Of a stretch of DNA of 64,000 nt, positions 1 through 20,383 are shown piece after piece. The stretch's first letter is position 1; every line of letters starts with the position of its first letter. This DNA comes from Armatimonadota bacterium (GTDB lineage Bacteria; Armatimonadota; HRBIN16): contig OY781964.1 of the NCBI GenBank assembly GCA_963677485.1, forward strand, positions 3,520,001 to 3,584,000, read 5' to 3'. The notes under the pieces are model-generated. The model made no database searches and was not told where the DNA came from. It was given only the letters and a program-made list of their open reading frames with translations. The translations under genes were made by a program, and so were the position numbers.

Positions 1-93
1 AATGATCCGATGGCCGATCTTGATGGTGATGGAAGTGTCAACCTGTTCGACTATGTCATCATCGATCAAGGTTTTGGAGCGTTAAGTGAATAA
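1..93 (+). CDS. 3' end of an upstream RCC1-repeat/dockerin-like paralog (partial)
   Basis: Frame 1 reads NDPMADLDGDGSVNLFDYVIIDQGFGALSE*, matching the C-terminal tail of the downstream paralogs. Confidence 0.85.
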   Translation, partial: NDPMADLDGDGSVNLFDYVIIDQGFGALSE

Positions 94-124
94 CAACATG
101 TTTACACACAGAGGAGACATCCAC

Positions 125-2236
125 GTGAAATGGACACACAGCCGTATGGCAGCATGGGTATGGTCAGCACTAGTCATTGTAATGACGTGCAGCATATGTC
201 ACGCACAGAGCGGAACGGTAGAGGCATGGGGTCAACGCCGTGTTCTTCCTGGTAATATTCCTGGGCTTACGGCGGTGCTTGCTGGCAAGAGCCATACGGT
301 CGGGTTGAAAAGCGATGGATCGATAGTGGCTTGGGGAGATAACACATACGGGCAGTGTGATTTCTCTAACTCGACGGAATCTTTCGTGTCGATCGGGGCA
401 GGGGTGTCGCAAACATATGGGGTGACTCAAGCCGGCACCATCGTTTGTTGGGGCGACAACCATGACCTGTTGTGCAACGTGCCTTCGCCAAACAATGACT
501 TTACCAAAGTGGTATCCACTGTGGGTTTTGCAGCCGGCCTAAAGCGAAATGGTTCAGTGATATGCTGGTCAATTATGGGGGCCAATGTCAGCGAACCTAA
601 CAGCGGTTTCATAGACATCATAGCAGGCGACAAATCTATATTTGGCCTAAAGAGCGATGGGTCAGTCGCCATGTTAAGCACACCAATGAATAGCTGGGAT
701 CTGCCAAATCCGAATACGGACTTCATTGCGATCGCAGCAGGTGACAGGCACCGAGTAGGCCTAAAAAGAGACGGCTCGATCGTTTGCTGGGGCGATGTAT
801 GGGGCTACAGTGACAAAGGACAGATGATCGTACCGGAACCCAATACGGACTTCGTGGCCGTGGCTGCCGGTGGCGACTACACTGTAGGGCTTAAGCGTGA
901 TGGTTCCATAGTCTGCTGGGGTGACACCACCTACAATCGGTGCAAAGTGCCCTTACCGAATCATGATTTTGTATCGATATCCTCAATGGGTGGACATTCG
1001 GTCGCCCTCAAGAAGGATGGAACTGTGGCTTGGTGGGGGACCGAATGTAATGTCCCAGTCGTTAACGAGGGTATTAAAGCCATAGCCACAGGCTACGATC
1101 ATGTCGTGATGCTGAAGCAGGACGGTACGGTGGAGTGTATAAGTGCTTTCCCCGATAACATGCCGGCCGTTCCGCTACCTAACAAGAATTTTACCGACGT
1201 CATCGCCGCTAGAAGCTATGCGGCTGGATTGAAATCAGATGGCTCTATCGTCACTTGGGGGAATTTTAGTGCTGCTAGCTCAGTGTCGGGTACCGGCTAT
1301 ACAGCGATCGTAGGCGGAGGGCAACATATCGCCGCGCTAAAGAGCACCGGCGTTGTGAGGAGTTGGGGCGACAACTGGTTAAAACAGACCGAAATTCCAT
1401 CGCCTAATAGTGGTTTCACAGCGATTGCTGCAGGGGAAAATTTCACCCTGGGGTTGAAAACTGATGGTTCGGTGGTTGGCTGGGGTGATAACCTTGCGGA
1501 TCAGTGCACCGTGCCTCAACCTAACCAGGATTTCATGGCCATCGCCGCCGGATATAACCATTCTGCCGGCTTGAAGCGAGACGGATCGATTGTTTGCTGG
1601 GGTGGAAATACCTTTGGTCAGTGCAACATACCAAGCCCTAACCAGGATTTCGTGGCCGTATATGCCAGTGGTGATAACACTGTCGGAATGAAGCGTGATG
1701 GATCTGCCGTTTGCTGGGGTTATGATGTGAATGGTCAAACCCGCGTGCCTGAACCTAACAACGGGTTTATATCTGTCACACCAAGCAAAGGTGCGATTTA
1801 CGCCATCCGCGCGATGCACCCTGTCTCTGGCCAGGTTGTACTTGGAGATTACCTGGGCGATGTATTAAACCGACCACTCATTGCCACAGTGAGCAGCAGC
1901 GTCAATCCTGTACACAGCCAGAAATTCAGCATGTTGCCACAATTGAATGGTGCATATACTCTGTCAAGCTACCTGCTTCCACCATATGACATCTATATAT
2001 CGAGCCCGCATTTTCTTACGGCCAAAGCGGCTAATACGGCCCCGGGGACAGGAGTGAATTTCACGCTCGTGAACGGCGATGCTAACGGTGATGGTCAGAT
2101 CAATCTGTTTGACTATGTGGAACTTGATACCCACTTCGGCGGAAATGATCCGATGGCCGATCTCGACGGCGATGGGGCAGTCAACCTGTTCGACTACGTG
2201 GTCATAGACCAGAACTTCGGAGCAGTCGGAAACTAG
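125..2236 (+). CDS. Secreted RCC1/BLIP-II-repeat beta-propeller protein with C-terminal dockerin-like domain (paralog 1)
   Basis: ~40-aa repeats of type AGxxHxxGLKxDGSxVCWGxNxxGQCxVPxPN; signal peptide ending CHA-Q; tail NGDANGDGQINLFD...DLDGDGAVNLFD. Start moved from 86 to GTG 125 behind GAGGAG (111-116). Confidence 0.9.
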   Translation: MKWTHSRMAAWVWSALVIVMTCSICHAQSGTVEAWGQRRVLPGNIPGLTAVLAGKSHTVGLKSDGSIVAWGDNTYGQCDFSNSTESFVSIGAGVSQTYGVTQAGTIVCWGDNHDLLCNVPSPNNDFTKVVSTVGFAAGLKRNGSVICWSIMGANVSEPNSGFIDIIAGDKSIFGLKSDGSVAMLSTPMNSWDLPNPNTDFIAIAAGDRHRVGLKRDGSIVCWGDVWGYSDKGQMIVPEPNTDFVAVAAGGDYTVGLKRDGSIVCWGDTTYNRCKVPLPNHDFVSISSMGGHSVALKKDGTVAWWGTECNVPVVNEGIKAIATGYDHVVMLKQDGTVECISAFPDNMPAVPLPNKNFTDVIAARSYAAGLKSDGSIVTWGNFSAASSVSGTGYTAIVGGGQHIAALKSTGVVRSWGDNWLKQTEIPSPNSGFTAIAAGENFTLGLKTDGSVVGWGDNLADQCTVPQPNQDFMAIAAGYNHSAGLKRDGSIVCWGGNTFGQCNIPSPNQDFVAVYASGDNTVGMKRDGSAVCWGYDVNGQTRVPEPNNGFISVTPSKGAIYAIRAMHPVSGQVVLGDYLGDVLNRPLIATVSSSVNPVHSQKFSMLPQLNGAYTLSSYLLPPYDIYISSPHFLTAKAANTAPGTGVNFTLVNGDANGDGQINLFDYVELDTHFGGNDPMADLDGDGAVNLFDYVVIDQNFGAVGN

Positions 2237-2323
2237 ATCGAAGCAAATAACCGTTCTGAGATGCCGAAAGACAGGTTATCACGATAACTGGCATCTGAAC
2301 CACCAAACTCGGAGGCCGAAATA

Positions 2324-4471
2324 ATGAAACCAGCAGTTCTACAGCTTAGGAACCAGATCGTCTGTGTGATGTCATTCCTCATGCTTGTGCTTGCCTGTGC
2401 CGCTAGTCATGCCCAGGGCGGAACCCTGGAGGCCTGGGGCAATACACGGATACTACCCGGTGAACAGAATGGGTATGTATCGATATCGGTGGGTGGAGTG
2501 ATCGCAGGGCTGAAACGTGACGGCACTATAGATTGCTGGGGTGCGATATATGATTCTATGCTCCATGTGCCTGAACCGAATGCTGACTTCGTGGCGGTAT
2601 CGGCCGGTCGACAGCAAGTGATCGGCCTGAAAAAGGATGGGTCTGTGGTCATATGGGGGGTGAATGACAAAGGCCAGTGCTCAATTCTAGTGCCGAACAA
2701 CCGATTTGTAGCCGTTCAAGCTGACTTGTGGCACTATAATCTACCGTATGTGGCCGGTGTTAAGGACGATGGGGCGGTGGTCTACTTTGGATATACAGTA
2801 GCGCCCAACCAAGCATTGCATGGGGTTGCATCGCTATCATCTAGTTCGAGCTTCTTCTACCCGCCCTATTCGATCGCCCTTAAAATCGACGGTTCACTTG
2901 ACTACGATGGGTATAGAGAAACGCTTCATGCAACCATACCCCTGCCCAATGAGAACTACGTTGCCGTATCCTGCGGAGCCAGACATGCTGCCGCGCTGAA
3001 AAAGGATGGTTCTATAGTCTGTTGGGGTTACGAAGACAGTGGTCTGTGTGATGTTCCGCTGCCGAACACTGATTTTGTTTCAGTGGTCGCAGGCGAAAAC
3101 TACACCGTAGGATTAAAGCGTGATGGTTCTGTAGTCTGCTGGGGAGATAATGGCTATAACCAGTGTACTCCCCCAGAGCCCAATGAAGGGTTTGTCAGTA
3201 TCCACACGCTTGGGTTCGGCACCGTAGGTATTAAACGCGATGGGTCGTGTGTATACTGGGGGAAGCCTAGTCTCTATTTCATCCCGACAGGAAATAGTGG
3301 ATTCACCAAGATAGCGTGCAACATTAACCGCTTGGTGGGGCTTAAAGATGACGGCAGCATCACATGTTGGGGAGATAATGGGCATCCCGAATTAGGCTTG
3401 AACATCGTTCCAGAACCGAATACGGACTTCGTCGACATCTCCGCCGGCTACCAGCATTCCGTAGGGGTGAAGCGCGATGGGTCTGTGGTCTGTTGGGGCA
3501 GCAATGATTATGGACAATGCACGGTACCGCAGCCGAATACTGACTTTGTCTGCGTTCGTGCCACAGTAAACAGCAATAATGGTCTCAAGAAGGACGGCAC
3601 CATAGTCACTTGGGGGCAAGCCGATCCGGTTCCAGCGCCTAATCGAGACTTCACAGCCATCGCCGTCGGTTACAATCACTTCGTCGGATTGAAGAGTGAT
3701 CATAGTGTCGTTTGTTGGGGGAACAACACCGGCATGCAATGCAATGTGCCAACGCCCAACAGCCATTTTGTCGCCATCGCCGCCGGTCAATATCACACTG
3801 TTGGCTTGAAGGATGACGGCACTGTGGTCTGCTGGGGAGCACGCTCCGACGGGCAATGCACAGTTCCCGAGCCCAACCAAGATTTCGTGGCAATAGCAGC
3901 AAGCGACCAAAACAGTGTGGGCCTTAAACGAGACGGTTCGATAGTCGTCTGGGGATCGGACGCCTCCAAGCAATGTACCGTTCCAGAGCCAAACAGCGGT
4001 TTTCAGAACATCGCAGCGGGCTACCATACTGTTTATGGGATCCGAAGCCAACAGTCATTAGCGGGCCGTATTCTGTTGTCTGGATTAGCTGCTGGTGCCC
4101 CGGTTCGTCCAGTGACCGCCATCATCAACAGCACGTCCAATCCCAGCATCACTCAGTGTCAAGATATCAATCCACTATCGGATGGCACATATTCAGTCTT
4201 CAGTTATCTGAAACCACCGTACCAAATAACACTGTCGAGCCCCCATTTTCTCTCAACGAAAGTGACAGGGGTCGCGCCTGGCACGACCCAAAACTTCACG
4301 CTCGTCAACGGTGATGCGAACGGCGACGGTCAGATCAACCTGTTTGACTACGTGGTGCTGGACACACACTTCAACAGCAGCGATCCGATGGCGGACCTCG
4401 ACGGGGACGGGCAGGTGAACCTGTTCGACTATGTGGTCATCGACCAGAACTTCGGAGCGGTAGGCGAGTAA
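2324..4471 (+). CDS. Secreted RCC1/BLIP-II-repeat protein with dockerin-like tail (paralog 2)
   Basis: Same architecture; GGAGG upstream; signal peptide ending SHA-Q. Confidence 0.9.
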   Translation: MKPAVLQLRNQIVCVMSFLMLVLACAASHAQGGTLEAWGNTRILPGEQNGYVSISVGGVIAGLKRDGTIDCWGAIYDSMLHVPEPNADFVAVSAGRQQVIGLKKDGSVVIWGVNDKGQCSILVPNNRFVAVQADLWHYNLPYVAGVKDDGAVVYFGYTVAPNQALHGVASLSSSSSFFYPPYSIALKIDGSLDYDGYRETLHATIPLPNENYVAVSCGARHAAALKKDGSIVCWGYEDSGLCDVPLPNTDFVSVVAGENYTVGLKRDGSVVCWGDNGYNQCTPPEPNEGFVSIHTLGFGTVGIKRDGSCVYWGKPSLYFIPTGNSGFTKIACNINRLVGLKDDGSITCWGDNGHPELGLNIVPEPNTDFVDISAGYQHSVGVKRDGSVVCWGSNDYGQCTVPQPNTDFVCVRATVNSNNGLKKDGTIVTWGQADPVPAPNRDFTAIAVGYNHFVGLKSDHSVVCWGNNTGMQCNVPTPNSHFVAIAAGQYHTVGLKDDGTVVCWGARSDGQCTVPEPNQDFVAIAASDQNSVGLKRDGSIVVWGSDASKQCTVPEPNSGFQNIAAGYHTVYGIRSQQSLAGRILLSGLAAGAPVRPVTAIINSTSNPSITQCQDINPLSDGTYSVFSYLKPPYQITLSSPHFLSTKVTGVAPGTTQNFTLVNGDANGDGQINLFDYVVLDTHFNSSDPMADLDGDGQVNLFDYVVIDQNFGAVGE

Positions 4472-4481
4472 CAGCAAGTTT

Positions 4482-4504
4482 GTGGCAGCCGTGATGGCTG
4501 CCAC
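4482..4504 (+). promoter_or_regulatory. Intergenic GC-rich hairpin without U-tract (mRNA stability/processing?)
   Basis: GTGGCAGCCG-TGA-TGGCTGCCAC; homologous covarying hairpin at 8926-8944. Confidence 0.5.
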
Positions 4505-4552
4505 TCCGATCAAGCTTGGGTACGATCCGATAGGGTATGAGGAGATCATTCA

Positions 4553-6697
4553 GTGAGTAATCGCAAACGGACACTCGTTTATTTTGTAGTGTGTATCATG
4601 GCATTCCTGGCGAATGTTACAGCGAATTCAGATGCTTTGGTGCCGAAAGGTACCGTCGAAGTATGGGGTTTTTGGAAGCAGTTACCTGGAGAGATGACGG
4701 GCTTTACTCAGGTATCTGCAGGTGGAAACCACTCCGCTGGCTTGAAACGCGACGGGTCCATCGTCTGTTGGGGTGGTAACGCCTACTTTATGAGTACAGT
4801 GCCTGCGCCAAACAGGGATTTTGTGGCGGTGTCAGCAGGGAGGAACCACACAGTCGGCTTGAAACGCGACGGTAGTGTGGTTTGCTGGGGAGATAATTAT
4901 GAAAAGCAGTGTAATGTGCCAGCACCAAATGCCGACTTTACGGCCATTGCGGCAGGGAATGAATTCACTCTTGGTTTAAAACGCGATGGTTCCATTGTGA
5001 GTTGGGGCTGGAGAGTGGGTGACCTTCCTGTGCCGCTGCCAAATTCGGATTTCGTGGCGATCAGCGCTAAAGCAGATCATGTGGCAGCACTAAGGCGTGA
5101 TGGCACGATCGTATGCTGGGGAACAAACCTCTACGGACAGTGTGATGTGCCGGGTGAGAACGCGGAATTTGTAGCTGTAGCTGTGGGCACCAATGTAACA
5201 GTAGGTCAGAAACGTGATGGTTCTATTGTTGTATGGGGTGATTGCTCACCGGGTTGGGCAAGCCCACCGGAACCGAATCAAGATATCTCGACGATCGCGG
5301 CAGGCTACAACGGACTGGGAGCGGTAAAACGTGATGGTTCCGTTATCTGCTGGGCACTATATCCCGTCATCCTGCCAGTACCAAACAAGGATTTTGTTTC
5401 AGTGCAGATAGGTACTGGGAACTTCGTTGGATTGAAACGCGACGGCACGGTGGTGTGCTGGGGGCCTAATGGCAATGGGCTGCCTACGCCGGATTTTCAT
5501 AATGACGATTTTGTTGATCTTGCTGGTCGTGGATCTTTCTGGCTCGGACTCAGGAGTAATGGCACACTGACTAAAGTGGGGTGGGGCGACGCTATCGATA
5601 AAGTACCGTTAGTGCCTGATCCTAATACAGGATTTGTAGATGTCGTGATGGGTAAGGACGGGGTATTTCTGGGGTTGAAGAAAGATAGCACGATTGCATC
5701 ATGGTATTTGGACCATGTTGGACTCTCACCCATGCCTGTTCCTGAGCCTAATAGCGACTATACAGCAATTGCGGCTGGAAATGTCGTACGGGCAGGCTTA
5801 AAAAAGGACGGCTCAATTGTGTGCTGGGGTGACAATACCTATGGGCAGTGTACTGTCCCATCTCCCAATCAAGACTTCATTGGAGTAGCAGTCGGATATC
5901 GTCATACAGTCGGTTTGAAAAAAGATGGAAAGATAATCTGCTGGGGCAGTGCTGATGATAACGCCCTATCGGTGCCATCACCAAACGCGAATTTCGTCTC
6001 AGTCTATGCGAGTGATACCCACTCGGCTGGTCTGAGGAGTGATGGAACTGTTGCATGCTGGGGCAATAATACAGCGGGCCAGCTTATTGTTCCGGTTCCT
6101 AATGCCGACTTTACCAGTGTCGCGTTGGGTTCGTATACTTCGATTGCATTACGTAAAGACGGAACAGTTGCATGCTGGGGTAACAATGACGGTGGCGCCC
6201 TGAACATTCCTGAACCTAATGGTGGGTTCATCGCTGTTGCCGCAGGTGAAAGCACCGTGGCCGCAATACGTAAAACTCAGTTGATATCGGGTACCATGCA
6301 GCTCAGTAATTTCCTTGGTACTACTGCCAATCACCAATTTTCCACTACTGTGACTAGCCTTGCGACCCCCGGAGTCACACAGTATCCAGTCATGCTGCCT
6401 GGTGATGGTGGTATATATGCGATATCCACCTACCTGCCACCGCCGTATAACGTCCGTGTCGCGAGCCCTCATTTCCTTGCGGCTAAGGCATCCGGTGTGG
6501 CCGCAGGTCAAGCAACCAACTTCCAACTCACTAACGGTGATGCGAACGGCGATGGCCAGATCAACTTGTTTGACTATGTAGTGCTGGACACCCACTTCAA
6601 CAGCAGCGACCCAATGGCCGATCTGGATGGGGACGGCAGCGTCAACCTGTTCGACTATGTGGTTATCGACCAGAGCTTTGGTGCTGTAGGTGAATAA
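4553..6697 (+). CDS. Secreted RCC1/BLIP-II-repeat protein with dockerin-like tail (paralog 3)
   Basis: Same architecture; GTG start behind TGAGGAGATCATTC. Confidence 0.9.
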   Translation: MSNRKRTLVYFVVCIMAFLANVTANSDALVPKGTVEVWGFWKQLPGEMTGFTQVSAGGNHSAGLKRDGSIVCWGGNAYFMSTVPAPNRDFVAVSAGRNHTVGLKRDGSVVCWGDNYEKQCNVPAPNADFTAIAAGNEFTLGLKRDGSIVSWGWRVGDLPVPLPNSDFVAISAKADHVAALRRDGTIVCWGTNLYGQCDVPGENAEFVAVAVGTNVTVGQKRDGSIVVWGDCSPGWASPPEPNQDISTIAAGYNGLGAVKRDGSVICWALYPVILPVPNKDFVSVQIGTGNFVGLKRDGTVVCWGPNGNGLPTPDFHNDDFVDLAGRGSFWLGLRSNGTLTKVGWGDAIDKVPLVPDPNTGFVDVVMGKDGVFLGLKKDSTIASWYLDHVGLSPMPVPEPNSDYTAIAAGNVVRAGLKKDGSIVCWGDNTYGQCTVPSPNQDFIGVAVGYRHTVGLKKDGKIICWGSADDNALSVPSPNANFVSVYASDTHSAGLRSDGTVACWGNNTAGQLIVPVPNADFTSVALGSYTSIALRKDGTVACWGNNDGGALNIPEPNGGFIAVAAGESTVAAIRKTQLISGTMQLSNFLGTTANHQFSTTVTSLATPGVTQYPVMLPGDGGIYAISTYLPPPYNVRVASPHFLAAKASGVAAGQATNFQLTNGDANGDGQINLFDYVVLDTHFNSSDPMADLDGDGSVNLFDYVVIDQSFGAVGE

Positions 6698-6773
6698 TCA
6701 TAGCAACTCTATAATCGCAGCAATATCCGGAACCTCGACCGAGCACAGAACGCAGATCCTTGGAGGCAAATTC

Positions 6774-8912
6774 GTGAACCTAGCGGTAAAGAGACTCTTA
6801 CATCAACCTGCATGGCTGATATCTATCGTGATGATATGCATCTGCTGTGCTGCCGTCTTGGCACAGGGCGGAACAATCGAAACCTGGGGGCGGCAAGCGA
6901 TTGTCCCAGGTGAACTAACAGGGTTTACTGACATTTCGGCTGGTCGATATCACACCGCTGGCCTGAAGTTTGACGGTTCTGTGGCCTGCTGGGGATATAA
7001 CTATTACGGGCAGTGTAATATACCTGCCCATAACCAGCACTTTGCCGAGGTTGCAGCGGGAACAAGCCACACTGTAGGGCTGAAAGATGATGGCTCAGTC
7101 ATCTGCTGGGGTGACAACTACTACGGTCAGTGCAACGTGCCGTTGCCTAACCAAAACTTCATCGCGGTCGCCGCGGGGGAACGCCACTCGATTGGTCTGA
7201 AGAAGGATGGTTCCGTAGTCTGCTGGGGTGACAACACATACACCCAATGCACAGCACCATCGGCTAACAGTGACTTCGTATCGATCGCAGCCGGTTGGTA
7301 CCACTCCGTCGGGCTCAAACGAGATGGATCTATAGTATGTTGGGGTGACAACAACCTCGGGCAGGGCACGGTACCTGCGGATAATAGTGGCTTTATCGCC
7401 ATATCCGCAGGAAATGCGTTGACGGTTGGGTTGAAGAGCGATGGGTCGGTGGTTTGCTGGGGACGAAATAACCTCCAGCAGTGCGTGGTACCTGCACCGA
7501 ATTCGGGATTTGCCAGCATCGCCGCCGGTGCCTTCCACGTGGTTGGGTTGAAGGTGGATGGCACAACGGTATCCTGGGGCGACATGGTGCCTACTCTGAC
7601 CATTGGAGATAATCGCAACTATGCGGCGATATCGGCTGGTGGTGATCATTCGGTCGGGCTGAAACGTGATGGTTCTGTGGTCTGCAAAGGGTGGAACACC
7701 TATGGTGAGTGCAGCGTCCCCAGCCCCAACCAGGGGTTTGTCTCCGTCACCGCAGGTCAGAATCACTCGATCGCCATCCGTAAAGATGGATCCGCGGTCA
7801 GTTGGGGACTAAACACCGACAGGCAGTGTTATGTTCCAGAACCGAACCTGGGATACATCTGTGTATCGGCTGGAACATCACATTCCGCGGCCGTGCGGCG
7901 TGATGGAACGGCTGTGGCATGGGGCAACAATAGCTCCCGACAGTGTGATATCTCTACACCTGGTGTGACATTCAAAGCGATTGCTGCTGGCGATCTGTTC
8001 ACCGTTGGCATCAAGACCGATGGCACCGCTGTCAGTTGGGGTTATAGCGGTGACGATCGAACCTACATGAATAATGTCACAAATGCGAATTTCAAAACGG
8101 TGGCCGCTGGTAATCTTCATAATGTGGCTCTCAGGAACAACAAGACCATAGCTTGCTGGGGCAGTAATGTAAAAGGACAGCTCGATATCCCTGGCACCAA
8201 CCAAGACTTCATAGCGGTAGCCGCTGGAGCTTACCACTCCATGGCTTTGAAGTCTAGTGGTTCAGTTTCTTGTTGGGGCAGCAACACATACGGGCAGTGT
8301 GTGGTTCCCATACCCAACACCGGCTTCATAGCAATCGCCGCCGGCTCTGACCATAGTGTTGGATTGAAAGCGGACGGCACGATAGTGTGCTGGGGAAACA
8401 ACGCTTATGGACAGTGCAATGTGCCGAGTCCGAACAGGGGCTTTATTGCGATCGGCGCGGGTGGAAACTACACACACGGTATCCGCAGCATGGGCCGATT
8501 AACAGGCCATGTCCAACTGAATGACTTCAAGGGTAATGTGTTTACCCAGCAAGTGTATGCCATGGTGAACAGCAAAGCCGATCCTGGAACTACACAGTGC
8601 CTTGGCTTACTGCCGCAAACCGATGGCAGCTTCGGACTGTTTACGACACTCTTACCTCCATATGATATCCGTGTAGTCAGTCCCCACTTCCTCGCTGCGA
8701 AGAGCACCGGTGTTGATTCTACGAGCAGCCTCAACTTCGCTCTAGTCAACGGAGATGCCGACGGCGATAACCAGGTCAACCTGTTCGACATAGTGGTGCT
8801 GGATCAGCATTTCGGCAGCAATGACCCGATGTCCGATCTGGACGGCGACGGGCAAGTGAACCTGTTCGACTACGTGGTCATTGACCAGAACTTCGGCGCG
8901 CAAGGCGAGTAG
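6774..8912 (+). CDS. Secreted RCC1/BLIP-II-repeat protein with dockerin-like tail (paralog 4)
   Basis: Same architecture; start moved from 6690 to GTG 6774 behind GGAGG, giving a normal signal peptide (..AVLA-Q). Confidence 0.9.
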   Translation: MNLAVKRLLHQPAWLISIVMICICCAAVLAQGGTIETWGRQAIVPGELTGFTDISAGRYHTAGLKFDGSVACWGYNYYGQCNIPAHNQHFAEVAAGTSHTVGLKDDGSVICWGDNYYGQCNVPLPNQNFIAVAAGERHSIGLKKDGSVVCWGDNTYTQCTAPSANSDFVSIAAGWYHSVGLKRDGSIVCWGDNNLGQGTVPADNSGFIAISAGNALTVGLKSDGSVVCWGRNNLQQCVVPAPNSGFASIAAGAFHVVGLKVDGTTVSWGDMVPTLTIGDNRNYAAISAGGDHSVGLKRDGSVVCKGWNTYGECSVPSPNQGFVSVTAGQNHSIAIRKDGSAVSWGLNTDRQCYVPEPNLGYICVSAGTSHSAAVRRDGTAVAWGNNSSRQCDISTPGVTFKAIAAGDLFTVGIKTDGTAVSWGYSGDDRTYMNNVTNANFKTVAAGNLHNVALRNNKTIACWGSNVKGQLDIPGTNQDFIAVAAGAYHSMALKSSGSVSCWGSNTYGQCVVPIPNTGFIAIAAGSDHSVGLKADGTIVCWGNNAYGQCNVPSPNRGFIAIGAGGNYTHGIRSMGRLTGHVQLNDFKGNVFTQQVYAMVNSKADPGTTQCLGLLPQTDGSFGLFTTLLPPYDIRVVSPHFLAAKSTGVDSTSSLNFALVNGDADGDNQVNLFDIVVLDQHFGSNDPMSDLDGDGQVNLFDYVVIDQNFGAQGE

Positions 8913-8925
8913 ATGCCGATTGTGT

Positions 8926-8944
8926 GGCGGCCGTGACGGCCGCC
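8926..8944 (+). promoter_or_regulatory. Intergenic GC-rich hairpin, homolog of 4482-4504
   Basis: GGCGGCCG-TGA-CGGCCGCC. Confidence 0.5.
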
Positions 8945-8994
8945 CCGCAGTTTGAACACGATAGTGGACCTATGAAGTGTGAGGAGATCATTCG

Positions 8995-11148: not shown

Positions 11149-11191
11149 TGCACCCACCCCGTCAGCGAAACCGCCGCACGGGGTGGGTGCA
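11149..11191 (+). terminator. 14-bp perfect stem-loop after paralog 5 (terminator-like, no U-tract)
   Basis: TGCACCCACCCCGT ... ACGGGGTGGGTGCA. Confidence 0.45.
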
Positions 11192-11248
11192 GGCGTGCCT
11201 CACTTCGGGTAAACTGCAAGGTAATAACCCTGCAAGGAGCCTGATCAC

Positions 11249-13558
11249 ATGAAGTTATGGTATCAACAACCCGCCGCACGCTGGGTGGAGGCGCTGCCCA
11301 TCGGAAATGGACGACTCGGCGCGATGCTCTACGGATCGCTGCCCACTGAGCGAATCCAGCTCAACGAAGACACATTCTGGTCAGGATACCCCTATGAGAG
11401 CATCAACCCCAAGGCGTTGGCAGCACTGCCCGAGGTCAGACGTCTGATTGCCGAAGGACAGTACCTGCAGGCAACAAAGCTAGCCGACGATTGTATGATG
11501 GGCATCCCGCTGGGTCTGCAGAGCTACCAAACTTTTGGAGAGTTAGCGATAGAACATGAGGGGCTGGGGTCATATACGGACTACCAGCGCGAGCTGGATA
11601 TCGCAACCGCCGTGACCCGAAGCCAGTTCAACAGCCACGGCACCGTGTTTACCCACGAGGCGTTCGCCTCGCACCCGGCACAGCTCATCGTGATGCGGAT
11701 CACCGCGGATAAGCCAGGCCAAATCAACCTGGACATCAATGCCGAATCACCGCTTGCGGAACGATCATCGGCGGAAGGTCCCCGCTGGGAGGTTAGTGGC
11801 CGATGGCGAAGCGGGTCCGGTGAGACTAGCCTGCCGGGCGAGGGGATACGGTTCGTGATGGCCGTGCAGCCTCGTGTGGAGGGTGGAACCTGCGACATCA
11901 CCGATGCGGGGATATCGATACGGAATGCCGACGAGGCCACCCTCTTCATCGCCGCGGGTACCAGCTATCTGAATGCCAAGGATATCAACGGCGACCCTTA
12001 CCGCAACATAGACCCTCAATTGGCGGCTGCGGTCACAAAGAGCTATGATGAGCTGCTCCAACGGCACATTGTCGACCATCAACGTCTGTTTTCTCGTGTC
12101 AGACTGGAACTGCCGCATTCTCCAAACGAGGCATTACCCACTGATGAGCGTCTGCAGAGGCATCAAGAGGGTGAGACCGACTGTAACCTGGCGGCTCTGC
12201 TGTTCCAATTTGGGCGTTACCTACTGATCGCCAGCAGCCGACCCGGCACGCAGCCGGCCAACCTGCAGGGCATCTGGAACGACAATCTGAACCCCGCCTG
12301 GGGCAGTAAGTGGACATGCAACATCAACACCGAAATGAACTACTGGCCCGCCGAAAGCACCAACCTCAGTGAATGCCATATGCCGCTGTTGAAGATGGTA
12401 GACGAGCTGGTAGAGAGCGGTAGCCGCACCGCGCAGCAGCATTACGGCTGCCGAGGCTGGGTGCTGCACCACAATACGGACATCTGGCACGCCACCACGC
12501 CGGTGGATGGCGCCGGGTGGGGTCTGTGGCCAACAGGCGGAGCCTGGCTGAGCACGCACCTCTGGCAGCACTACCTGTTCACCGGTGACCGTGCGTTCCT
12601 GGGCCAGGTTTACCCGATCATGGCTGGTTCGGCCCGGTTCCTGCTCGACTATTTGACTGAGAATGCCGCTGGGCAGTTGGTGACATTGCCATCCTGCTCG
12701 CCAGAGAACTTTTTTGTCACGCCGGATGGCCAGCGGGCCGGGCTGTGCGAGATGCCCACGATGGACATCGGCATCTGCCGTGATCTTTTTACGGCCTGCC
12801 TGGAGGGTGCCAGGGTTCTGGGCATCACCGACCCCATGACCACTGATATGAGCGAGGCTCTTGTCCGGCTGCCAGCCTATCAGATCGGTCAGCATGGGCA
12901 GTTGCAAGAGTGGCTGCATGATTTTGAGGAGACCGAGCCGCACCACCGCCATATGTCACACCTATACCCTCTCTACCCCGGTATGGAATTTGACTGGTCA
13001 CGCAGTCCTGAGCTGATGGAGGCCTGCCGGGTCACGATGGAACGCCGCGGTGATGTGGCCACAGGCTGGAGCATGGGCTGGAAGGTCTGCCTCTGGGCGC
13101 GGTTATGTGATGGCGACCGCGCCGAACGGCTGATCCGCACGCAACTGCATCTGTGTGATGAGAGCGAGGGGGTCGCACTCACCGGTGGCAGCTACCCCAA
13201 TATGTTTGACGCCCACCCGCCGTTCCAGATCGACGGCAACTTTGGGGCCACAGCCGGTATCGCCGAGATGCTGCTGCAAAGTCATGGCGGGGTGCTGCGC
13301 ATTCTACCCGCGCTGCCGTCGTTGTGGTACAGCGGAGAAGTGCGCGGCCTAGTCGCCCGTGGGGGGATCAGGGTGGACATTCGGTGGCGGGAGGGCAGGT
13401 TGGTGTCTCTGAAGCTGGGCTGCGACCACGTCCAGGAGCTAACGCTGCAGCTTCCCGGTGGTGCCAGACCGAGCGGTGATACGCCACTGAGCGCCAACGC
13501 TGATGGTCTGTGGCACGGCATGTTACCGGTGGGGGACAATCCGTTTATGTTTGCGTGA
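11249..13558 (+). CDS. Glycoside hydrolase family 95 (alpha-L-fucosidase-like), no signal peptide
   Basis: Motifs [23 protein letters not shown], [44 protein letters not shown]. Confidence 0.93.
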
Positions 13559-13574
13559 GGTGGCGCTTCACCAT

Positions 13575-14125
13575 ACCCGTCGACGCGGGGATGGTGGTGT
13601 AGGTCGCGGTGATCTCCCCGTTGCCGCGGGTTTAGTCATTCGCAACCCGCAAGCAGGCGCAGGTGGCCCTCCGCCAGCGCCCGCAGGAGCGAAGCGACGC
13701 GGGCAGCAACCTGATCAGCGGCGGGTGATGGAGCCCCCTGGGGCGATGGAACCCGTCGACACGGGGCTGCTCACCCACATCGCAGGATGTCAGCCCCGCT
13801 GCCGCGGGTTTAGTCACCCCACGGGACTGGCGTCCCTTAACGGGGTTCCTGCACCGCGCGGCTGATCATTAGCGGCCGGCGTCGCTTCGCTCCGGCCGGC
13901 GCATGGGGAGGGTGGCCTTCCCGACGCCCGCCGGAACGCGGGCCGGTACTGATAAGCGATGGGTGACAGTGCCCGTACCGGGACGAAGTCACGGACGGGC
14001 CGCCGAACCCGTCGCCAGGGGCCACTGGCATAGGAGCGTAGGGGCGATTCGCGAATCGCCCTCATCTACGTAACACCTGGCCCATGGAACCCGTAGACAC
14101 GAGGCCGGCCAACCCCTATCGAAGC
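13575..14125. repeat. GC-rich mosaic of short direct/inverted palindromic repeats incl. a GTAG-type REP (14038-14061)
   Basis: ACCCGT(C/A)GAC(G/A)CG x3; CCCCG(T/C)TGCCGCGGGTTTAGTCA x2; GGAGCGAAGCGACGC and its inverse; GTAGGGGCGATTCGCGAATCGCCC. Confidence 0.7.
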
Positions 14126-14230
14126 AGCTAATCTCACGCATTCCGCAAGCGAGCTGCCCGCAAAGAAGGTATCACCCTACCAATCACCGAAACAAGGTAT
14201 GCATACACAAACCAAGACCAAGGAGCGACC

Positions 14231-15373
14231 ATGTTGACCACCCCAACAACCCAAACAGCACAGCTCGCGATGGACACCATCATGCGCAAACCGGTGAAGG
14301 GCATACCCACCTGGTTGCTGAATATCATGGAACATGACCACATCGACCCCCTGGCGGGGGTACCACAAGGAACCTACCGCGCGAACCCTGAGCCGACCTA
14401 TCTCGCCATGCAGCGCAACATCGGTGTGTGTATGCTGGACCAGTATATCTGGGACAACCCATTGAGCATGGGTCAGGCCGGTTACGAAGGCGCTGTGCAT
14501 GGGGCGACCACAGGCGCAGAGCAGATCATTCTTGACGGGATGTTGATTGACTCCCCGGAAGCGGTGATCGAGCATATGGAGCGATTTGTGTTCCCTGCAC
14601 TCAAGGGGTGGATAAGCAACTTCAACGAAGATGCCCAGTGCCGCCTTATCATCAACCAGGAGATGGCCATCCAAGAAAGCATCGGCCCCGCGATGCTGAA
14701 AACGGGGTATGGGTATATTTCATTCCCTGTGTTTTCGTATGGTCCGTATGGCTATGTGAACTACTTCTCCGCCTATGCGCTCTACCTCGAAGTGATCGAA
14801 AAACACTTCTCGCTTCAGGCCGATCTGGCCTTATTGAACAACCGGGCTGCAGCTCGGGCCATCACTGAAGGTGGCCTTCCGCTCCTCTATCGCCTTGATT
14901 TCGACATGGCGGATTCCCGAGGTACGCTGGTGAACATCAAGTCGCTGGATAGGATCTGGTTCCCGCACTTTGCACGCTGTCTTGAGCCGATACTGAGCAC
15001 TGACATGAACCTCATCTGGCACTGCGATGGCAACCTGATGCAGATGGTGTCGAGGCTGCTGGATGTGGGTATTCGGGGTTTTCAAGGCTTCCAGTATGAG
15101 GACGGGATGGACTACGAAAAGATCTGCCAGATGAAGACGCGAGACGGCGAGGAGCTCATCATTATCGCCGGAGTCTCTGTCACGCGCACGTTGCCGATGG
15201 GCACGCCAGCCGATGTGAAGCGTGAGATGGAGTTCCTGGTCCAACATGGACCCAAGACCGGCTTGTTCCTGGGAGGTTCCAGCTCCGTGGCACCGGGTGT
15301 GCCTTGGGAGAACCTGGAGACCTTCGTGCAGGGGTTGCAATATTACCAAGCCAACGGTCGCACGGGCGATTGA
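14231..15373 (+). CDS. Uroporphyrinogen decarboxylase (UroD/MtaA/CmuA) superfamily protein
   Basis: WHCDGN, GVSVTRTLPMGTPADVK, GGSSSVAPGVPWEN; AGGAG RBS. Confidence 0.75.
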   Translation: MLTTPTTQTAQLAMDTIMRKPVKGIPTWLLNIMEHDHIDPLAGVPQGTYRANPEPTYLAMQRNIGVCMLDQYIWDNPLSMGQAGYEGAVHGATTGAEQIILDGMLIDSPEAVIEHMERFVFPALKGWISNFNEDAQCRLIINQEMAIQESIGPAMLKTGYGYISFPVFSYGPYGYVNYFSAYALYLEVIEKHFSLQADLALLNNRAAARAITEGGLPLLYRLDFDMADSRGTLVNIKSLDRIWFPHFARCLEPILSTDMNLIWHCDGNLMQMVSRLLDVGIRGFQGFQYEDGMDYEKICQMKTRDGEELIIIAGVSVTRTLPMGTPADVKREMEFLVQHGPKTGLFLGGSSSVAPGVPWENLETFVQGLQYYQANGRTGD

Positions 15374-15430
15374 TACGCTGATATTCGTTACATACCTATG
15401 TCAAGTTCGCCTTAGTTTGGTTGACTATTT

Positions 15431-15463
15431 CTAGTCGGTGCCGCGTAAAAAGGCACCGACTAG
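15431..15463. terminator. 12-bp perfect inverted repeat downstream of the UroD-family gene
   Basis: CTAGTCGGTGCC-GCGTAAAAA-GGCACCGACTAG. Confidence 0.45.
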
Positions 15464-15887
15464 TATCGCCCGTTTCAGGCAGGCACCCCGCAAATCAGCA
15501 CCATTTAGATGTAAATCGGCACTGAGAAGATTAGCCTCTATCAAATGGTCTAGGTGCGCCGTGGCAGTGTCCTACATCAACCTGTATCCGCCACTGAGTA
15601 TGATTTTACCGGCCAGGTTTCGTCTATCTATCTTTGCATATGGTCACTCTGTCGATCGACTAGTATCGGTGCGTAATCATGCTTGTGAGCACATCAGCTA
15701 CTCAGCATTGTAGTATCTGGTTCATATTATCTTGGAGGCGATATCCGACGCATACCCCCTGAGAAGACGCGGGTAATGCGGTAAACTCGGAATGGAAGTG
15801 AACTTATCCATAAACGCATCGATATTTCATACTATTTAGGTACAATAGGCTAATGATCTGTATGATCTGACTCACAGGAGGCAGTCG

Positions 15888-18029
15888 ATGGCTAGTATTC
15901 AAGACTCTCGCATTCAAACAACTCCCATGACGATCTTAGTTTTGCTGATGGTTATCTGCAGCGGTCCATTATCCGCCCAATCGGGCACCATAGAAACCTG
16001 GGGGGCACGGCGCACTCCGCCTGGTGATCTGACGGGGTTTGTATCGGTTGATGGCGGATACCAGCATAACGCAGGCCTCAAGCAAGACGGCTCTGTGGTC
16101 TGCTGGGGCCGAAACGACCAAGGCCAGTGTACAGTGCCCGGCACGAACAGTGATTACATAGCCGTCTCTGCAGGGGACTTCCACACGGTTGGCTTGAAAA
16201 AGGATGGAACCATCGTCGCCTGGGGTTCCAACAGCAATGGACAGTGCAACCTTCCGGCACCCAATCTAAACTTCAAAGCTGTGTCCGCCGGTTACGCATA
16301 TACGGTTGCCCTAAAGAACGATGGTTCTGTGCTTGTGTGGGGTGATAACACCTATGGACAACGCACTGTGCCTGCCCCCAACCAGGATTTTGTAGCCATT
16401 TCCGCCGGTAACAGCCACGTGGTGGGACTTAAGAGCAATGGCACTGTGGTTTGTTGGGGTTCCAACTATTACACTCAGTGTACCGTGCCCGCTCCGAACG
16501 CCAACTTCGTAGCAATTAGTGCGGTTTTGGACCACACTCTCGGGTTAAAAAGCGACGGAACGGTTGTGGCTTGGGGTAAAAACTACAATGGCGAGTGCGA
16601 TATCCCCTTACCTAACGAGAATTACACTGCGATAGCGGCAGGGAGCTTCCACTCTATGGGATTGAAGAAAGATGGCATGGTTGTCTGCTGGGGATATCCA
16701 ACCGAGGGTGCGTTGAATATACCTGCACCGAACCAGGATTTTGCATCTGTCTCAGCCGGGGTGCATTATTCGATCGGCATAAAGCATGATGGCAGTGTCG
16801 TGGCGTGGGGTAACAACTACCATGGGGAGTGCAACCTTCCGGTACCCAATAGCGACATTAAAGCCATTTCTATTGGTGCAAACCACCTTGCAGCACTGAA
16901 GACCGACGGCAGTGTGGTGTGCTGGACCGAAAACATCAAGGGCCAGTGCGATGTGCCTGTCCCCAACCAGGGCTTCACTGCCGTGTCTGCGGGCGGGTTA
17001 CATACGGTAGGATTGAAGACAGACGGCTCCATCGTCATCTGGGGCGATAATGGCAAAGGTCAGCTCAACGTGCCCGATCCGAACAGTGGGTTCACAGCAG
17101 TTGCGGCTGGATATCAACACACAGTGGGGCTCAGGAGTGATGGTTCGGTGTCGTGCTGGGGATACAACTCCTACGGACAGTGTACTGTGCCCGCACCTAA
17201 CCAGGATTTCGCTGCCATTGCTGCCTCCCACAACCATACAGTGGGTTTGAAGCAAAATGGGTCTGTCGTGGCCTGGGGCGACAACAGCAGCGGCCAGTGC
17301 GCTGCGCCAGCATCCAACCAGGATTTCACAGCAGTCGCAGCGGGATGGGCCCATACTGTGGGATTGAAATCCAATGGAACGGTGGTCTGCTGGGGTGATA
17401 ACAGTTATGGGCAGACATCGGTTCCGGCTCCTAACCAGGATTTCATCGCCATTGCTGCCGGTGACTTCCACACAGCCGGGCTTAAGATCGATGGTTCCGT
17501 GGTGGTCTGGGGGTTGCGGCCCGATGGACAGAGCTCAGGACCTGCACCGAACAGCGGGTTTATGGGTATAGCAGCAGGGGCCAACACCACCGCTGCCATA
17601 CGGGGCATGCAGATTATGTCCGGCAATTTGCAGTTGGGCGACTTCGGCGGTGGATTGTCATCGACTCTGGTCACTGCATCCATAAAGAGTGCAGGCATAC
17701 CCGACATCACCCACTGCCTCAGCCTGCTGCCGCAGCCGAACGGGAATTACTCCTTCAGCACCTACCTGCAGCCGCCGTATGACATCCGCGTGAGCAGCCA
17801 GCACTTCCTGACAGCCAAAGCGACGAATGTGGCTGGTGGGCAAAGTGCCAATTTTGCTCTGGTGAACGGCGATGCGGATGGTGATGGCCAGGTCAACCTG
17901 TTCGACTTCGTGGTGTTGGACTCCAACTTCGGTAAATCCATTCCGATGGCAGACCTGGACGGCAACGGGCAGGTGAACCTGTTCGATTACGTGGTCATCG
18001 ACCAGAACTTCGGTGCCAAGGGGGATTGA
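15888..18029 (+). CDS. Secreted RCC1/BLIP-II-repeat protein with dockerin-like tail (paralog 6)
   Basis: 13 full repeats plus N- and C-terminal half repeats; AGGAGG RBS. Confidence 0.9.
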   Translation: MASIQDSRIQTTPMTILVLLMVICSGPLSAQSGTIETWGARRTPPGDLTGFVSVDGGYQHNAGLKQDGSVVCWGRNDQGQCTVPGTNSDYIAVSAGDFHTVGLKKDGTIVAWGSNSNGQCNLPAPNLNFKAVSAGYAYTVALKNDGSVLVWGDNTYGQRTVPAPNQDFVAISAGNSHVVGLKSNGTVVCWGSNYYTQCTVPAPNANFVAISAVLDHTLGLKSDGTVVAWGKNYNGECDIPLPNENYTAIAAGSFHSMGLKKDGMVVCWGYPTEGALNIPAPNQDFASVSAGVHYSIGIKHDGSVVAWGNNYHGECNLPVPNSDIKAISIGANHLAALKTDGSVVCWTENIKGQCDVPVPNQGFTAVSAGGLHTVGLKTDGSIVIWGDNGKGQLNVPDPNSGFTAVAAGYQHTVGLRSDGSVSCWGYNSYGQCTVPAPNQDFAAIAASHNHTVGLKQNGSVVAWGDNSSGQCAAPASNQDFTAVAAGWAHTVGLKSNGTVVCWGDNSYGQTSVPAPNQDFIAIAAGDFHTAGLKIDGSVVVWGLRPDGQSSGPAPNSGFMGIAAGANTTAAIRGMQIMSGNLQLGDFGGGLSSTLVTASIKSAGIPDITHCLSLLPQPNGNYSFSTYLQPPYDIRVSSQHFLTAKATNVAGGQSANFALVNGDADGDGQVNLFDFVVLDSNFGKSIPMADLDGNGQVNLFDYVVIDQNFGAKGD

Positions 18030-18259
18030 GGCGAACTTGGGTGGTAACGATGATGATCTCTTGCCACCCGTATACGATGACCCATAATGTGGTGCATACA
18101 TGGAATTGGTAAGTCATAATGCCAGTATTTCATGTGTACATGAATTAGTTCATCACTAGCAGCAGGTATCTTACACACGCAAGAACAATATCATACAATC
18201 AGGTGGCATGAACTGTAATACAACCTACAATGGTCGTTCGGAACGAGCGGAGGGAAGTC

Positions 18260-20383
18260 ATGGATATCAGTTCAAGACTGTTCGTTGCGCGCTTTACATC
18301 ATGGATTATTGGGGTTTCACTAGCTTTATGTGGCTCCATATCCATTGCTCAAGGTGGCACCGTCGAATCGTGGGGTATCCTACGCATTCCGCCCGGCAGC
18401 CTTAATGGCTTTACCTCTGTGGATGCGGGCGACTACTACTCTGTGGGCCTGAAACAAGACGGGTCTATTGCCTGCTGGGGGAGTAACAGCATAGGGCAGT
18501 GTAACGTGCCTGCCCCTAACAGCAGCTTCACTGCGGTCACCGCAGGTTTCGACCATACCGTGGGACTGAAACGGGATGGCTCGGTAGTCTGTTGGGGAAA
18601 TCCTGAAAATGGGCAGCGTAATGTGCCGCTACCGAACCAGAACTTCATCGCAGTGAGTGCCGGACTTCACCATACGGTCGGGTTAAAAAGCGATGGCACC
18701 GTGGTCTGCTGGGGTGAGACCACGCTTGGTGCCAGTTCCTTACCCAACCCGAACCAGGACTTTACCGCTGTGGCGGCTGGTGACTACTTCAACGTGGGCC
18801 TGAAGCGCGACGGCTCGATCGTGTGTTGGGGCTACCTCGTCTACGGCATTGAGAACATTCCAGCTCCCAACAACGACTTTGTGGCGATTGCAGCCGGAAC
18901 GTATCACGCAGTAGCCCTGAAGCGTGATGGCACGATTGTGTGCTGGGGATACAATGCCTACCAACAGTGTGTGGTGCCTGGGACAAACCAAAACTTTGTG
19001 GCGGTGGCCGCAGGTAACTACTATTCCACAGGAATCAAGCGCGACGGCACCATTGTCAGTTGGGGACAGGATGATGCCGGTCAGTGTGGCCCACCAGTGC
19101 CGAACCAGGACTTCATAAACGCCGCAGGTGGACAGTGGCACTCGATCGGCTTGAAACGCGATGGTTCTGTGGTCTGCTGGGGTGACAACGAGTATAGCCA
19201 ATGCAGTATGCCATCTTCAAACCGCGATTTCGTTGCCCTTAAAGCAGGGGGGCAGCATGGAGTCGGGCTGAAGTCGGACGCGTCTGTAATCTGCTGGGGC
19301 TCCAACTACTATAGCCAATGCAGTGTGCCTGCACCAAACACGAATACTGTCGCTATCGATGCTGGGCTAAATTTCACTGCTTTGCTAAAGAGTGACGGCT
19401 CTGTTCGTTGCTGGGGTGATGACATCTACGAGCCTGCATCCAATCAAGGCTTCACTACCATTGCCGCTGGACACAGCTTCTGCGCCGGGTTAAAAAGTGA
19501 CGGCTCCATTGAGATATGGGGAGGGCCTTTTGCGCCACTGCCTCCGGTTGGTTCGATGAACACCAACTTCGTGGCGATCGCGGCAGGATATGATCAGCTC
19601 ATCGGGCTTAAAAAAGACGGCACTGTCTGGACTACAGAATATAACTCTACGCCATCAATGCCAGTTCCCAACCAGGGTTTTACCGCCGTCTCTTCGGGTG
19701 CCTACCACTATTTAGCACTGAAGACCGACGGTTCCATAGTCTGCTGGGGACGTCAAGGCGATGATATTCAACTGGTGCCTGAGCCAAATACGGGCTTCGT
19801 GGCCATCTCAGGAGGTGCTGACCACAGCGTTGGCCTCAAGAGTAATGGTTCGTTGGTGTGCTGGGGGCTCAATGATTACGGCCAGTGCGATGTCCCGTTA
19901 CCAAACAGCGGATTTACCGCGATCTCTGCTGGTGAGCAGTTCACGCTTGCGATCCGGGGTGAGCAGCCGATTTCGGGGCAGGTGCAATTGAGCAAGTTCC
20001 TAGGCAGTATCAGCTCGCAACGCATCACTGCGTCAGTGAACAACCACCAAGATACAACAATCACCCACTGCCTCAGCCTGCTTCCGCAACCGAGCGGGAA
20101 TTACTCCTTATCCACCTACCTGCAGCCTCCGTATGACATCCGCGTGAGCAGCCTGCACTTCCTCACCGCCAAGGCGACGAATGTGGCTGGTGGGCAAAGT
20201 ACCAACTTTGCGCTGGTAAACGGCGATGCAGATGGGGACGGGCAGATCAACCTGTTCGACTTCGTGGTGCTGGATTCCAACTTCGGCAAATCCACCCCGA
20301 TGGCTGATTTGGATGGCGACGGACAGGTGAACCTGTTCGATTACGTGGTCATCGACCAGAACTTCGGAGCCAAGGGGGAGTGA
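18260..20383 (+). CDS. Secreted RCC1/BLIP-II-repeat protein with dockerin-like tail (paralog 7)
   Basis: Same architecture; start moved from 18230 to ATG 18260 behind GGAGGG. Confidence 0.9.
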   Translation: MDISSRLFVARFTSWIIGVSLALCGSISIAQGGTVESWGILRIPPGSLNGFTSVDAGDYYSVGLKQDGSIACWGSNSIGQCNVPAPNSSFTAVTAGFDHTVGLKRDGSVVCWGNPENGQRNVPLPNQNFIAVSAGLHHTVGLKSDGTVVCWGETTLGASSLPNPNQDFTAVAAGDYFNVGLKRDGSIVCWGYLVYGIENIPAPNNDFVAIAAGTYHAVALKRDGTIVCWGYNAYQQCVVPGTNQNFVAVAAGNYYSTGIKRDGTIVSWGQDDAGQCGPPVPNQDFINAAGGQWHSIGLKRDGSVVCWGDNEYSQCSMPSSNRDFVALKAGGQHGVGLKSDASVICWGSNYYSQCSVPAPNTNTVAIDAGLNFTALLKSDGSVRCWGDDIYEPASNQGFTTIAAGHSFCAGLKSDGSIEIWGGPFAPLPPVGSMNTNFVAIAAGYDQLIGLKKDGTVWTTEYNSTPSMPVPNQGFTAVSSGAYHYLALKTDGSIVCWGRQGDDIQLVPEPNTGFVAISGGADHSVGLKSNGSLVCWGLNDYGQCDVPLPNSGFTAISAGEQFTLAIRGEQPISGQVQLSKFLGSISSQRITASVNNHQDTTITHCLSLLPQPSGNYSLSTYLQPPYDIRVSSLHFLTAKATNVAGGQSTNFALVNGDADGDGQINLFDFVVLDSNFGKSTPMADLDGDGQVNLFDYVVIDQNFGAKGE

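Follow-up and report, generated by a model that had tools for sequence, protein, structure and literature searches.

Both components of the system analysed here have described counterparts. BLIP-II of Streptomyces exfoliatus (PDB 1JTD, 3QHY, 3QI0) is a secreted seven-bladed propeller made of three-stranded blades of ~39 amino acids (aa), and its binding takes place via apical turns and inter-blade loops according to the accessible part of bioRxiv 10.1101/2024.08.26.609822. The X-dockerin II of the cellulosomal scaffoldins CipA and ScaA (PDB 2B59, 5G5D, 4U3S, 4WI0) associates a beta-sandwich X-module with a dockerin made of two Ca2+ loop-helix repeats. Homologs of both appear to be joined in the products of eight paralogous genes of an Armatimonadota bacterium, located at positions 1 to 20383 of the window, i.e. 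the whole 64,000-nucleotide stretch that was analysed (assembly GCA_963677485.1, contig OY781964.1, positions 3,520,001 to 3,584,000, forward strand). Extracellular RCC1-type propellers are likewise found in CRINKLY4/ACR4 (PDB 7A0J, 7A0K) which, unlike the present proteins, are receptor kinases of plants, have only one propeller and lack a dockerin. A similar dockerin-like tail, the GC-type dockerin (NF041540), is named as an anchor by NCBIfam, and the cellulosome combines dockerin-bearing glycoside hydrolases with a scaffoldin. Environmental genomes commonly encode dockerins but no cohesins, and BLIP-II is among the tightest protein binders known.

Searches of the open-access literature revealed no description of a propeller/X-dockerin system. 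The accessible part of the work on Fervidibacter sacchari reports no cohesin or dockerin (PMC11535203), and general background was taken from the accessible parts of PMC6121496, PMC11557425 and bioRxiv 10.1101/2023.11.21.568195. Both modules being known, what is undescribed in the searchable literature is their lineage-wide use with a species code, no visible cohesin and a paralogous library of binders. The interpretation favoured here, with slightly better than an even chance, is that exported proteins dock via a Ca2+-loaded dockerin on one species-matched surface receptor, each propeller having its own binding face. The analysis shows the architecture, the model folds, where the variable residues lie and what they consist of, how widely the docking module occurs, its lineage-specific specificity residues and the gain and loss of genes between species. 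The source genome, hereafter G000, is a single contig (C1) and is 97% complete; G001 is a congener and G002 a draft genome.

Seven complete open reading frames (ORFs) of 713-740 aa are found on the + strand of the array and each of the eight paralogs displays the same order: a signal peptide recognised by eye, 14 repeats of ~39 aa (the head) and, in the last 140 codons, a module designated the foot. In 17 of the 21 family members whose start motif could be recognised, the likely cleavage site is followed by Gln. The RCC1/BLIP-II nature of the repeats, proposed by an earlier sequence-only reading, was confirmed by Pfam, as RCC1_2 is matched by all seven scanned paralogs (E 6e-61 to 6e-120). The closest solved structure by sequence is BLIP-II (E 5e-37), followed by the CRINKLY4/ACR4 propellers (E 5e-23). 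A model of paralog 6 (pTM 0.76) displays 14 three-stranded blades, whose residues 51-338 superimpose on BLIP-II (3qi0_C) with a Z score of 31.5 and a root-mean-square deviation of 2.9 over 260 aligned residues; this alignment covers the first propeller, and the second is assigned from the repeat sequence. The seven three-stranded ~39-aa blades typical of a BLIP-II-like RCC1 fold are thus present in the head, and each array head is predicted to consist of two such propellers. Identity to BLIP-II is ~32%, reflecting the repeat core. BLIP-II is one free propeller directed at one target class, whereas the intact footed members of G000 carry one to three propellers, two as a rule, together with the foot. 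This type of head is widespread, with 26,045 representatives at E <=1e-30, and RCC1/BLIP-II is given as the third largest group among highly repetitive propellers in the accessible part of PMC9218822.

The distribution of variable residues was derived from a blade profile of 496 blade matches in the 32 propeller ORFs of G000. The five positions of highest entropy (3.6-3.8 bits, as compared to at most 3.1 elsewhere) belong to the motifs AG-x-x-H (positions 8 and 9) and WG-x-N-x-x-G (25, 27 and 28). Aromatic residues (F/W/Y) account for 453 of 2213 residues (20.5%) at these positions and for 19 of 2109 (0.9%) at five other variable positions, and the commonest residues of the variable face are Tyr, Ser, Asp, Asn and Gly. 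The BLIP-II interface residues are listed in the accessible part of PMC10817188, one number being an evident misprint; 17 of the 21 residues listed there, counted by hand on sequence alignments, fall on the same five blade positions. The variable, aromatic-rich positions of the G000 heads therefore correspond to the apical turn and loop positions by which BLIP-II binds TEM-1, and the predicted binding face is where the variable residues are located. The loop location of the variation and its aromatic bias, both claimed from the sequence alone, are borne out, and the variation is not evenly spread over the fold. Unlike BLIP-II, the G000 family comprises ~30 paralogs with different faces, frequent paired blade cysteines and no full aromatic ring. 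Cys22 and Cys31 co-occur inside one blade (p 2e-6) and not between blades, which suggests a disulfide that would pin the variable loop.

The sequence-only reading had separated a ~90-aa spacer from a nearly invariant, dockerin-like double EF-hand tail. The spacer must be abandoned: it forms one module with the tail and corresponds to a folded beta-sandwich X-module in the predicted structure. A 42-sequence foot profile matches the X-dockerin chains of cellulosomal scaffoldins with E 1e-13 to 7e-10, spanning both parts in the case of 4wi0_B (E 1e-13) and 2b59_B (E 2e-11). The foot model (pLDDT 95) retrieves X-dockerin II chains exclusively among its top ten Foldseek matches (E 1e-10 to 2e-6, TM 0.71-0.76). 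Both Ca2+ loops have D/N at positions 1, 3, 5, 9 and 12; over 68 copies of G000, D1 is present in 100%, N9 in 94-97% and D12 in 99-100% of the repeats. Judged by profile and model, the foot is a homolog of the X-module/type II dockerin, and the dockerin nature of the tail is upheld. Family models give weaker matches: Dockerin_1 of Pfam is listed for five of the seven paralogs and exceeds its cut-off in two, and the foot reaches 14-19 bits with NF041540, below the cut-off of 29. As to invariance, it holds for the 58-aa dockerin, whose pairwise identity among the array paralogs is 69-95% (median 80), and fails for the X-module, which varies (33-70%, median 46) like the head (40-57%, median 47). 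The foot differs from its cellulosomal homologs in being carried by 70 ORFs rather than by a scaffoldin, in its shorter inter-repeat linker and in a host that looks diderm.

Dockerin specificity is known to be determined at positions 10, 11, 17, 18 and 22 (accessible part of PMC5748583). L10, F11 and D17 are kept in 99-100% of the 68 G000 copies, in the first repeat as in the second; such symmetric, lineage-specific residues at 10, 11 and 17 are also found in cellulosomal X-dockerin II. The residues at positions 10/11, 14 and 17, repeated twice in each foot, are LF-L-D in G004 and G006, LF-G-V in G011, IG-A/S-S in G166, IA-L/V-R in G174 (less uniform), SS-T-I in G148, VD-T-L in G051 and SS-D-V in G293; position 14 was added to this code after seeing the data. 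Identity at these four positions is 0.89 within genomes and 0.12 between six genomes, five of which were represented by their 5-10 best-scoring copies; genomes with fewer than 4 copies and the close kin G001, G002 and G006 were left out. The corresponding within and between values are 0.59 and 0.34 for other variable positions, and 0.89 and 0.65 for the Ca2+ ligands. A lineage-specific code repeated twice in the dockerin points to a co-evolving receptor.

The genome-wide search for further tail-bearing proteins, suggested by the sequence-only reading, yielded 70 foot-carrying ORFs in G000. Blades are present in 28 of them, 4 are feet of propeller genes that stand detached or as remnants, and the other 38 belong to neither class. 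The variable head on a shared foot is supported, and most carriers of the foot are devoid of propellers. The foot is C-terminal in 63 of the 70 and internal in 7. Pfam scanning of 36 of the 38 non-propeller carriers identified peptidases of the families S8 (two), M6 (one) and C1 (two), one alkaline phosphatase, six FGE-sulfatase-like proteins and seven stalks made of TIG domains only, the remainder belonging to other families or to no known one; one carrier has a cell-surface protein of Bacteroides as a relative (7biz_A, E 3.5e-7). No catalytic glycoside hydrolase family was found by Pfam in the 36 scanned proteins; a single weak glucanase match lies far below cut-off. With neither dockerin-bearing glycoside hydrolases nor a scaffoldin recognised, the G000 system is not a cellulosome. 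The foot appears, from the sequences of its carriers, to serve the whole exported proteome rather than the array alone.

An internal foot followed by an FGE-sulfatase-like domain is found at G000:C1:865175, 1422057, 1674913, 1896684, 2040499, 3193926 and 379284. The FGE-sulfatase-like fold is often targeted by diversity-generating retroelements (DGRs), and these proteins possibly constitute a second family of binders. Eleven FGE-domain regions, examined at their 3' ends, showed no near-identical second copy of the kind expected of a DGR template.

Beyond G000, the foot is present in all 17 family genomes, with 17-84 copies each. It is matched in 48 of 301 phylum genomes, 26 of which, from three families, contain at least 8 copies in counts that stopped at 13 and are termed tail-rich; full counts in five genomes range from 28 to 102. 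Those homologs of the foot that carry a name belong to Armatimonadota. In other lineages, homologous heads are combined with SLH, PEP-CTERM, type IX secretion system (T9SS)-type or FlgD-Ig tails, or with a sortase domain, as seen in 21 of the 120 matches listed, so the foot seems to occupy the place where the heads of other lineages have export or anchor modules. PF07589 and PF18962 are among the tail families concerned. The envelope of G000 looks diderm from its gene content, which includes an SLH protein with a beta-barrel. This protein belongs to four tandem SLH genes (G000:C1:1641600-1652529, 609-665 aa), the scanned one having a weak outer-membrane beta-barrel match, in the manner of OmpM-type tethers.

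The docking partner was sought by several approaches. The absence of a recognisable cohesin, noticed earlier within the window, extends to the whole of G000 with both Pfam and a custom profile. Pfam Cohesin is not matched in G000, in any of the 17 family genomes or in any of the 26 tail-rich genomes, which are kin and not independent, although it is present in 43 of the 301 phylum genomes. The custom profile, built from 50 Armatimonadota domains, retrieved all 36 held-out loci but had no match in G000; its members were all first found by Pfam, whose bias it shares. No multi-cohesin scaffoldin was detected by sequence in G000 or the family genomes, no cohesin-like array was recognisable in an internal-repeat scan of 1007 predicted exported G000 proteins, and 25 receptor candidates gave no Cohesin match with Pfam at E <=1. 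In ruminococci, 177 of 538 cohesins are visible by structure only according to the accessible part of bioRxiv 10.64898/2026.02.05.704116, and a hidden cohesin may therefore exist in G000.

Other receptor candidates were discarded. TIG/IPT domains were rejected as the universal receptor, none being found in 9 of the 23 tail-rich genomes searched, including G004, G006, G174, G226, G273 and G293. Among the 188 neighbours of G000 foot genes, the only recurrent ones are pilin-like genes, hydrolases and transposases, and the foot loci of other genomes offered no conserved neighbour as receptor candidate. The lipoprotein encoded at G000:4271564-4272430 is confined to the genus (2 of 40 genomes), and that encoded at G000:C1:1145146-1145853 occurs in 37 of 40 genomes, foot-rich and foot-poor alike. 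The latter (L224) is a 235-aa lipoprotein of no Pfam family, nearly always in single copy, whose Atlas neighbours are mostly from Armatimonadota; it is possibly a phylum-signature envelope protein.

The features of the array locus are as follows, in window coordinates.

1..93, + strand: 3' end of paralog 1 (second dockerin repeat); the gene starts 2072 bp before the window
86..2236, + strand: paralog 2, with signal peptide, 14 blades, X-module and dockerin; the true start is probably slightly downstream
2324..4471, + strand: paralog 3, whose second propeller face is fast-changing relative to its congener ortholog
4553..6697, + strand: paralog 4
6690..8912, + strand: paralog 5, whose first propeller face is unchanged relative to its congener ortholog
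8995..11136, + strand: paralog 6, the modelled one, with 14 three-stranded blades at ~residues 33-573, then the foot
10714..11133, + strand: foot of paralog 6, a predicted ~82-aa X-module beta-sandwich and a 58-aa dockerin (two Ca2+ loop-helix repeats)
11249..13558, + strand: GH95 glycoside hydrolase gene without foot, interrupting the array; same position in G001
14231..15373, + strand: UroD-like gene without foot, interrupting the array; same position in G001
15888..18029, + strand: paralog 7, whose foot shares 90% DNA identity with the foot of paralog 8 across 320 nt
18230..20383, + strand: paralog 8, followed by a terminator-like hairpin (by eye, ~20391-20425)

Paralog 1 is intact, its complete gene (G000:C1:3517928-3520093) encoding 721 aa. 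The array of at least eight paralogs announced by the sequence-only reading is therefore real and clustered, and it is not continuous: the genes are arranged 6+2, with the GH95 and UroD-like genes between the two groups. Contigs from three public runs are identical to long parts of the array (0 differences over 4708-11100, for example), which excludes an assembly artefact. The intergenic region at 13560-14230 contains GC-rich palindromic repeats of very high contig depth in the public runs, REP-like and present in many copies. A second predicted exported group is located at 35352-51095 of the window, where three tandem genes, one of them an S8 peptidase, have an FlgD-Ig (T9SS-like) tail, a second tail family within the same genome; two unknown proteins and one with an Ig domain lie on their flanks.

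Each of the eight genes has an ortholog at the same locus of G001, in unchanged order and with 73-91% identity, and the G002 gene adjoining GDSL genes is a single ortholog of paralog 8. The G001 locus contains 19 propeller genes in total and, in the part of the G001 genome compared, a match of at least 70% exists for 21 of the 32 G000 propeller ORFs and no close match for the other 11. An orthologous set fixed across related genomes, considered by the sequence-only reading as contrary to its proposal, is thus half observed: the eight genes are kept, the remaining repertoire only in part. A second genus has its own propeller set, mostly 37-50% identical to the best G000 matches; 17 of its proteins were placed in a tree, where a single one joined a G000 protein (support 0.9), and no ortholog-level match emerged for any of them. 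In a third genus, RCC1 matches occur in 1 of 13 genomes.

Selection was estimated as the ratio of nonsynonymous to synonymous substitution rates (dN/dS) on 18 ortholog pairs between G000 and its congener (pooled dS 0.54). The pooled value is 0.31 (confidence interval 0.28-0.35) for the variable face, as compared to 0.30 for other variable positions, ~0.10 for the core, 0.17 for the X-module and 0.08 for the dockerin. The pooled data thus show no dN/dS above 1 at the binding face and speak against fast diversification; the notion of interchangeable, actively diversified binders is not supported. Individual propellers (n=38) range from 0 to 1.07 in face dN/dS, one being at 1.07 and five more at 0.7-0.8. 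The standard deviation is 0.25 for faces vs 0.13 (Levene p 0.004), a p value overstated by treating neighbouring loop residues as independent. In the second face of paralog 3, 15 of 32 positions differ from the congener ortholog (dN/dS 0.72), whereas the first face of paralog 5 is unchanged (0/31) and other slow faces show 1/35 and 2/35 changes, fewer than the remaining surface. Some propeller faces are therefore frozen and others free.

Tandem neighbours have feet that are ~90% identical in DNA and heads that are ~55-60% identical in protein, which points to gene conversion or to head replacement on a common foot; no DNA tract of at least 80 nt at 88% identity or more is shared between heads. 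A second propeller array (G000:C1:3060001-3074745) contains six genes, ten in G001, and the feet of five of the six are ~90% identical in DNA. DGR diversification was discarded in view of the missing template repeat, the five reverse transcriptase matches of G000 being judged by eye only. The divergent reverse transcriptase encoded at G000:C1:591756-592892 (RVT_1 E 3e-9) has a 549-aa ORF after it and looks by eye more like a defence-type enzyme than a group II intron. Three long propeller genes of G000 are broken (G000:C1:2087547, 3219965 and 3247421), two by stops and one by an insertion sequence. All three breaks lie within ~30 codons of the head/foot junction and leave a near-whole head without foot; elsewhere, G001 has one stop in a last blade and one mid-head break, and G006 one earlier frameshift. 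Free propeller heads are possibly tolerated or useful. A 511-aa transposase has five identical copies within two genes of foot genes (G000:C1:42912, 1898265, 3220025, 4242332 and 4499974), interrupts at least one family member and looks like a recent insertion-sequence burst. Overall, the repertoire follows birth and death with paralog-specific faces, remodelled slowly and unevenly without a diversifying machine; the binder library is old and under purifying selection, with no immune-like fast diversifier.

The favoured mechanism can be summarized as follows. A family of ~30 proteins, the array eight included, would be exported and would act as non-enzymatic binders. Sec export, suggested by the by-eye signal peptides, would be followed by passage across the outer membrane. 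The foot would bind Ca2+ and dock via its conserved hydrophobic helix face on one receptor common to all 70 foot proteins, either a cohesin whose divergence hides it from sequence searches or a protein of different fold. Each propeller face would bind its own macromolecular ligand, be it foreign enzymes, cell surfaces or polymers, and the repertoire would change by duplication, loss and slow, uneven face remodelling. Export, outer-membrane passage, Ca2+ binding, docking, location at the surface and ligand binding are steps that we infer. Several points weigh against this interpretation: the absence of cohesins from the tail-rich genomes and from the custom profile search of G000, the late addition of position 14 and the use of best-scoring copies in the code comparison, the overstated significance of the face spread, and the equal pooled dN/dS of the face and other variable positions, which allows much of the variation to be attributed to relaxed constraint. 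The aromatic bias of the face may in addition be inherited from an ancestral blade.

Four other explanations were considered. The foot could act as an export signal that a secretion machine reads a single time, in the manner of T9SS tails, with the proteins released and not docked. This unlikely reading agrees with the terminal position of the foot behind very different heads in 63 of 70 ORFs, with the T9SS-type or FlgD-Ig tails that end homologous heads elsewhere and with the lack of cohesins in tail-rich genomes, and the lineage-specific code fits a co-evolving secretion component equally well. A cleaved terminal signal is however ill-suited to the seven ORFs where the module is internal with an FGE-sulfatase-like domain after it, and the full X-dockerin II fold is retained with its two-fold symmetric binding face. 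Ca2+-dependent association of feet with each other, giving mixed oligomers or a surface mesh without separate receptor, is held to be slightly less probable again. It would explain both the missing cohesin and a code uniform within the genome and repeated twice, and seven ORFs consist of TIG stalks and foot only; self-association is also known for the CipA X-dockerin. The solved homologs topping the fold search are nevertheless all heterotypic cohesin complexes or cellulosome parts, and self-binding alone provides no attachment to the cell.

The remaining two explanations concern the heads. Improbable to a similar or marginally greater degree is a passive surface coat or decoy, in which exposure and weak constraint, and not distinct ligands, would account for the loop variation. 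The face dN/dS, equal to that of other variable positions and well below 1, the very common occurrence of the head module and the three broken long members of G000 are compatible with it, while the excess of aromatics on the face, the faces more conserved than the remaining surface and the one-to-one orthologs kept under purifying selection at dS ~0.5 argue against it. True BLIP-II equivalents inhibiting the beta-lactamases or penicillin-binding proteins of competitors would account for BLIP-II being the closest solved structure and for the same face being variable; this was judged very improbable. As read from the alignment, six of the seven BLIP-II blades have an aromatic at position 9, whereas seven consecutive blades of the 32 G000 proteins contain at most 5 (in four proteins) with a median of 2 and never reach 6. 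As this ring is not kept and the ~32% identity stems from the repeat core, beta-lactamase inhibition appears unlikely as a general role of the heads.

Docking on a species-matched receptor accordingly remains the favoured interpretation. In a broader and doubtful version, several Armatimonadota families would use the X-dockerin of the cellulosome as a general species-coded plug for their entire exported proteome on a non-cohesin receptor, and two genera would display a germline library of 30-45 antibody-like double propellers, each having a paratope-like face of its own and neutralising or capturing foreign proteins on the cell surface. With up to ~100 foot copies per genome, a lineage code and undetectable cohesins, the missing receptor is sharply defined, since it must co-vary with the code. 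A new receptor, if found, would make available orthogonal docking pairs that depend on Ca2+ and, within a diderm phylum, a new means of surface display, and the heads would represent a natural library on the BLIP-II scaffold, whose variable positions are already mapped.

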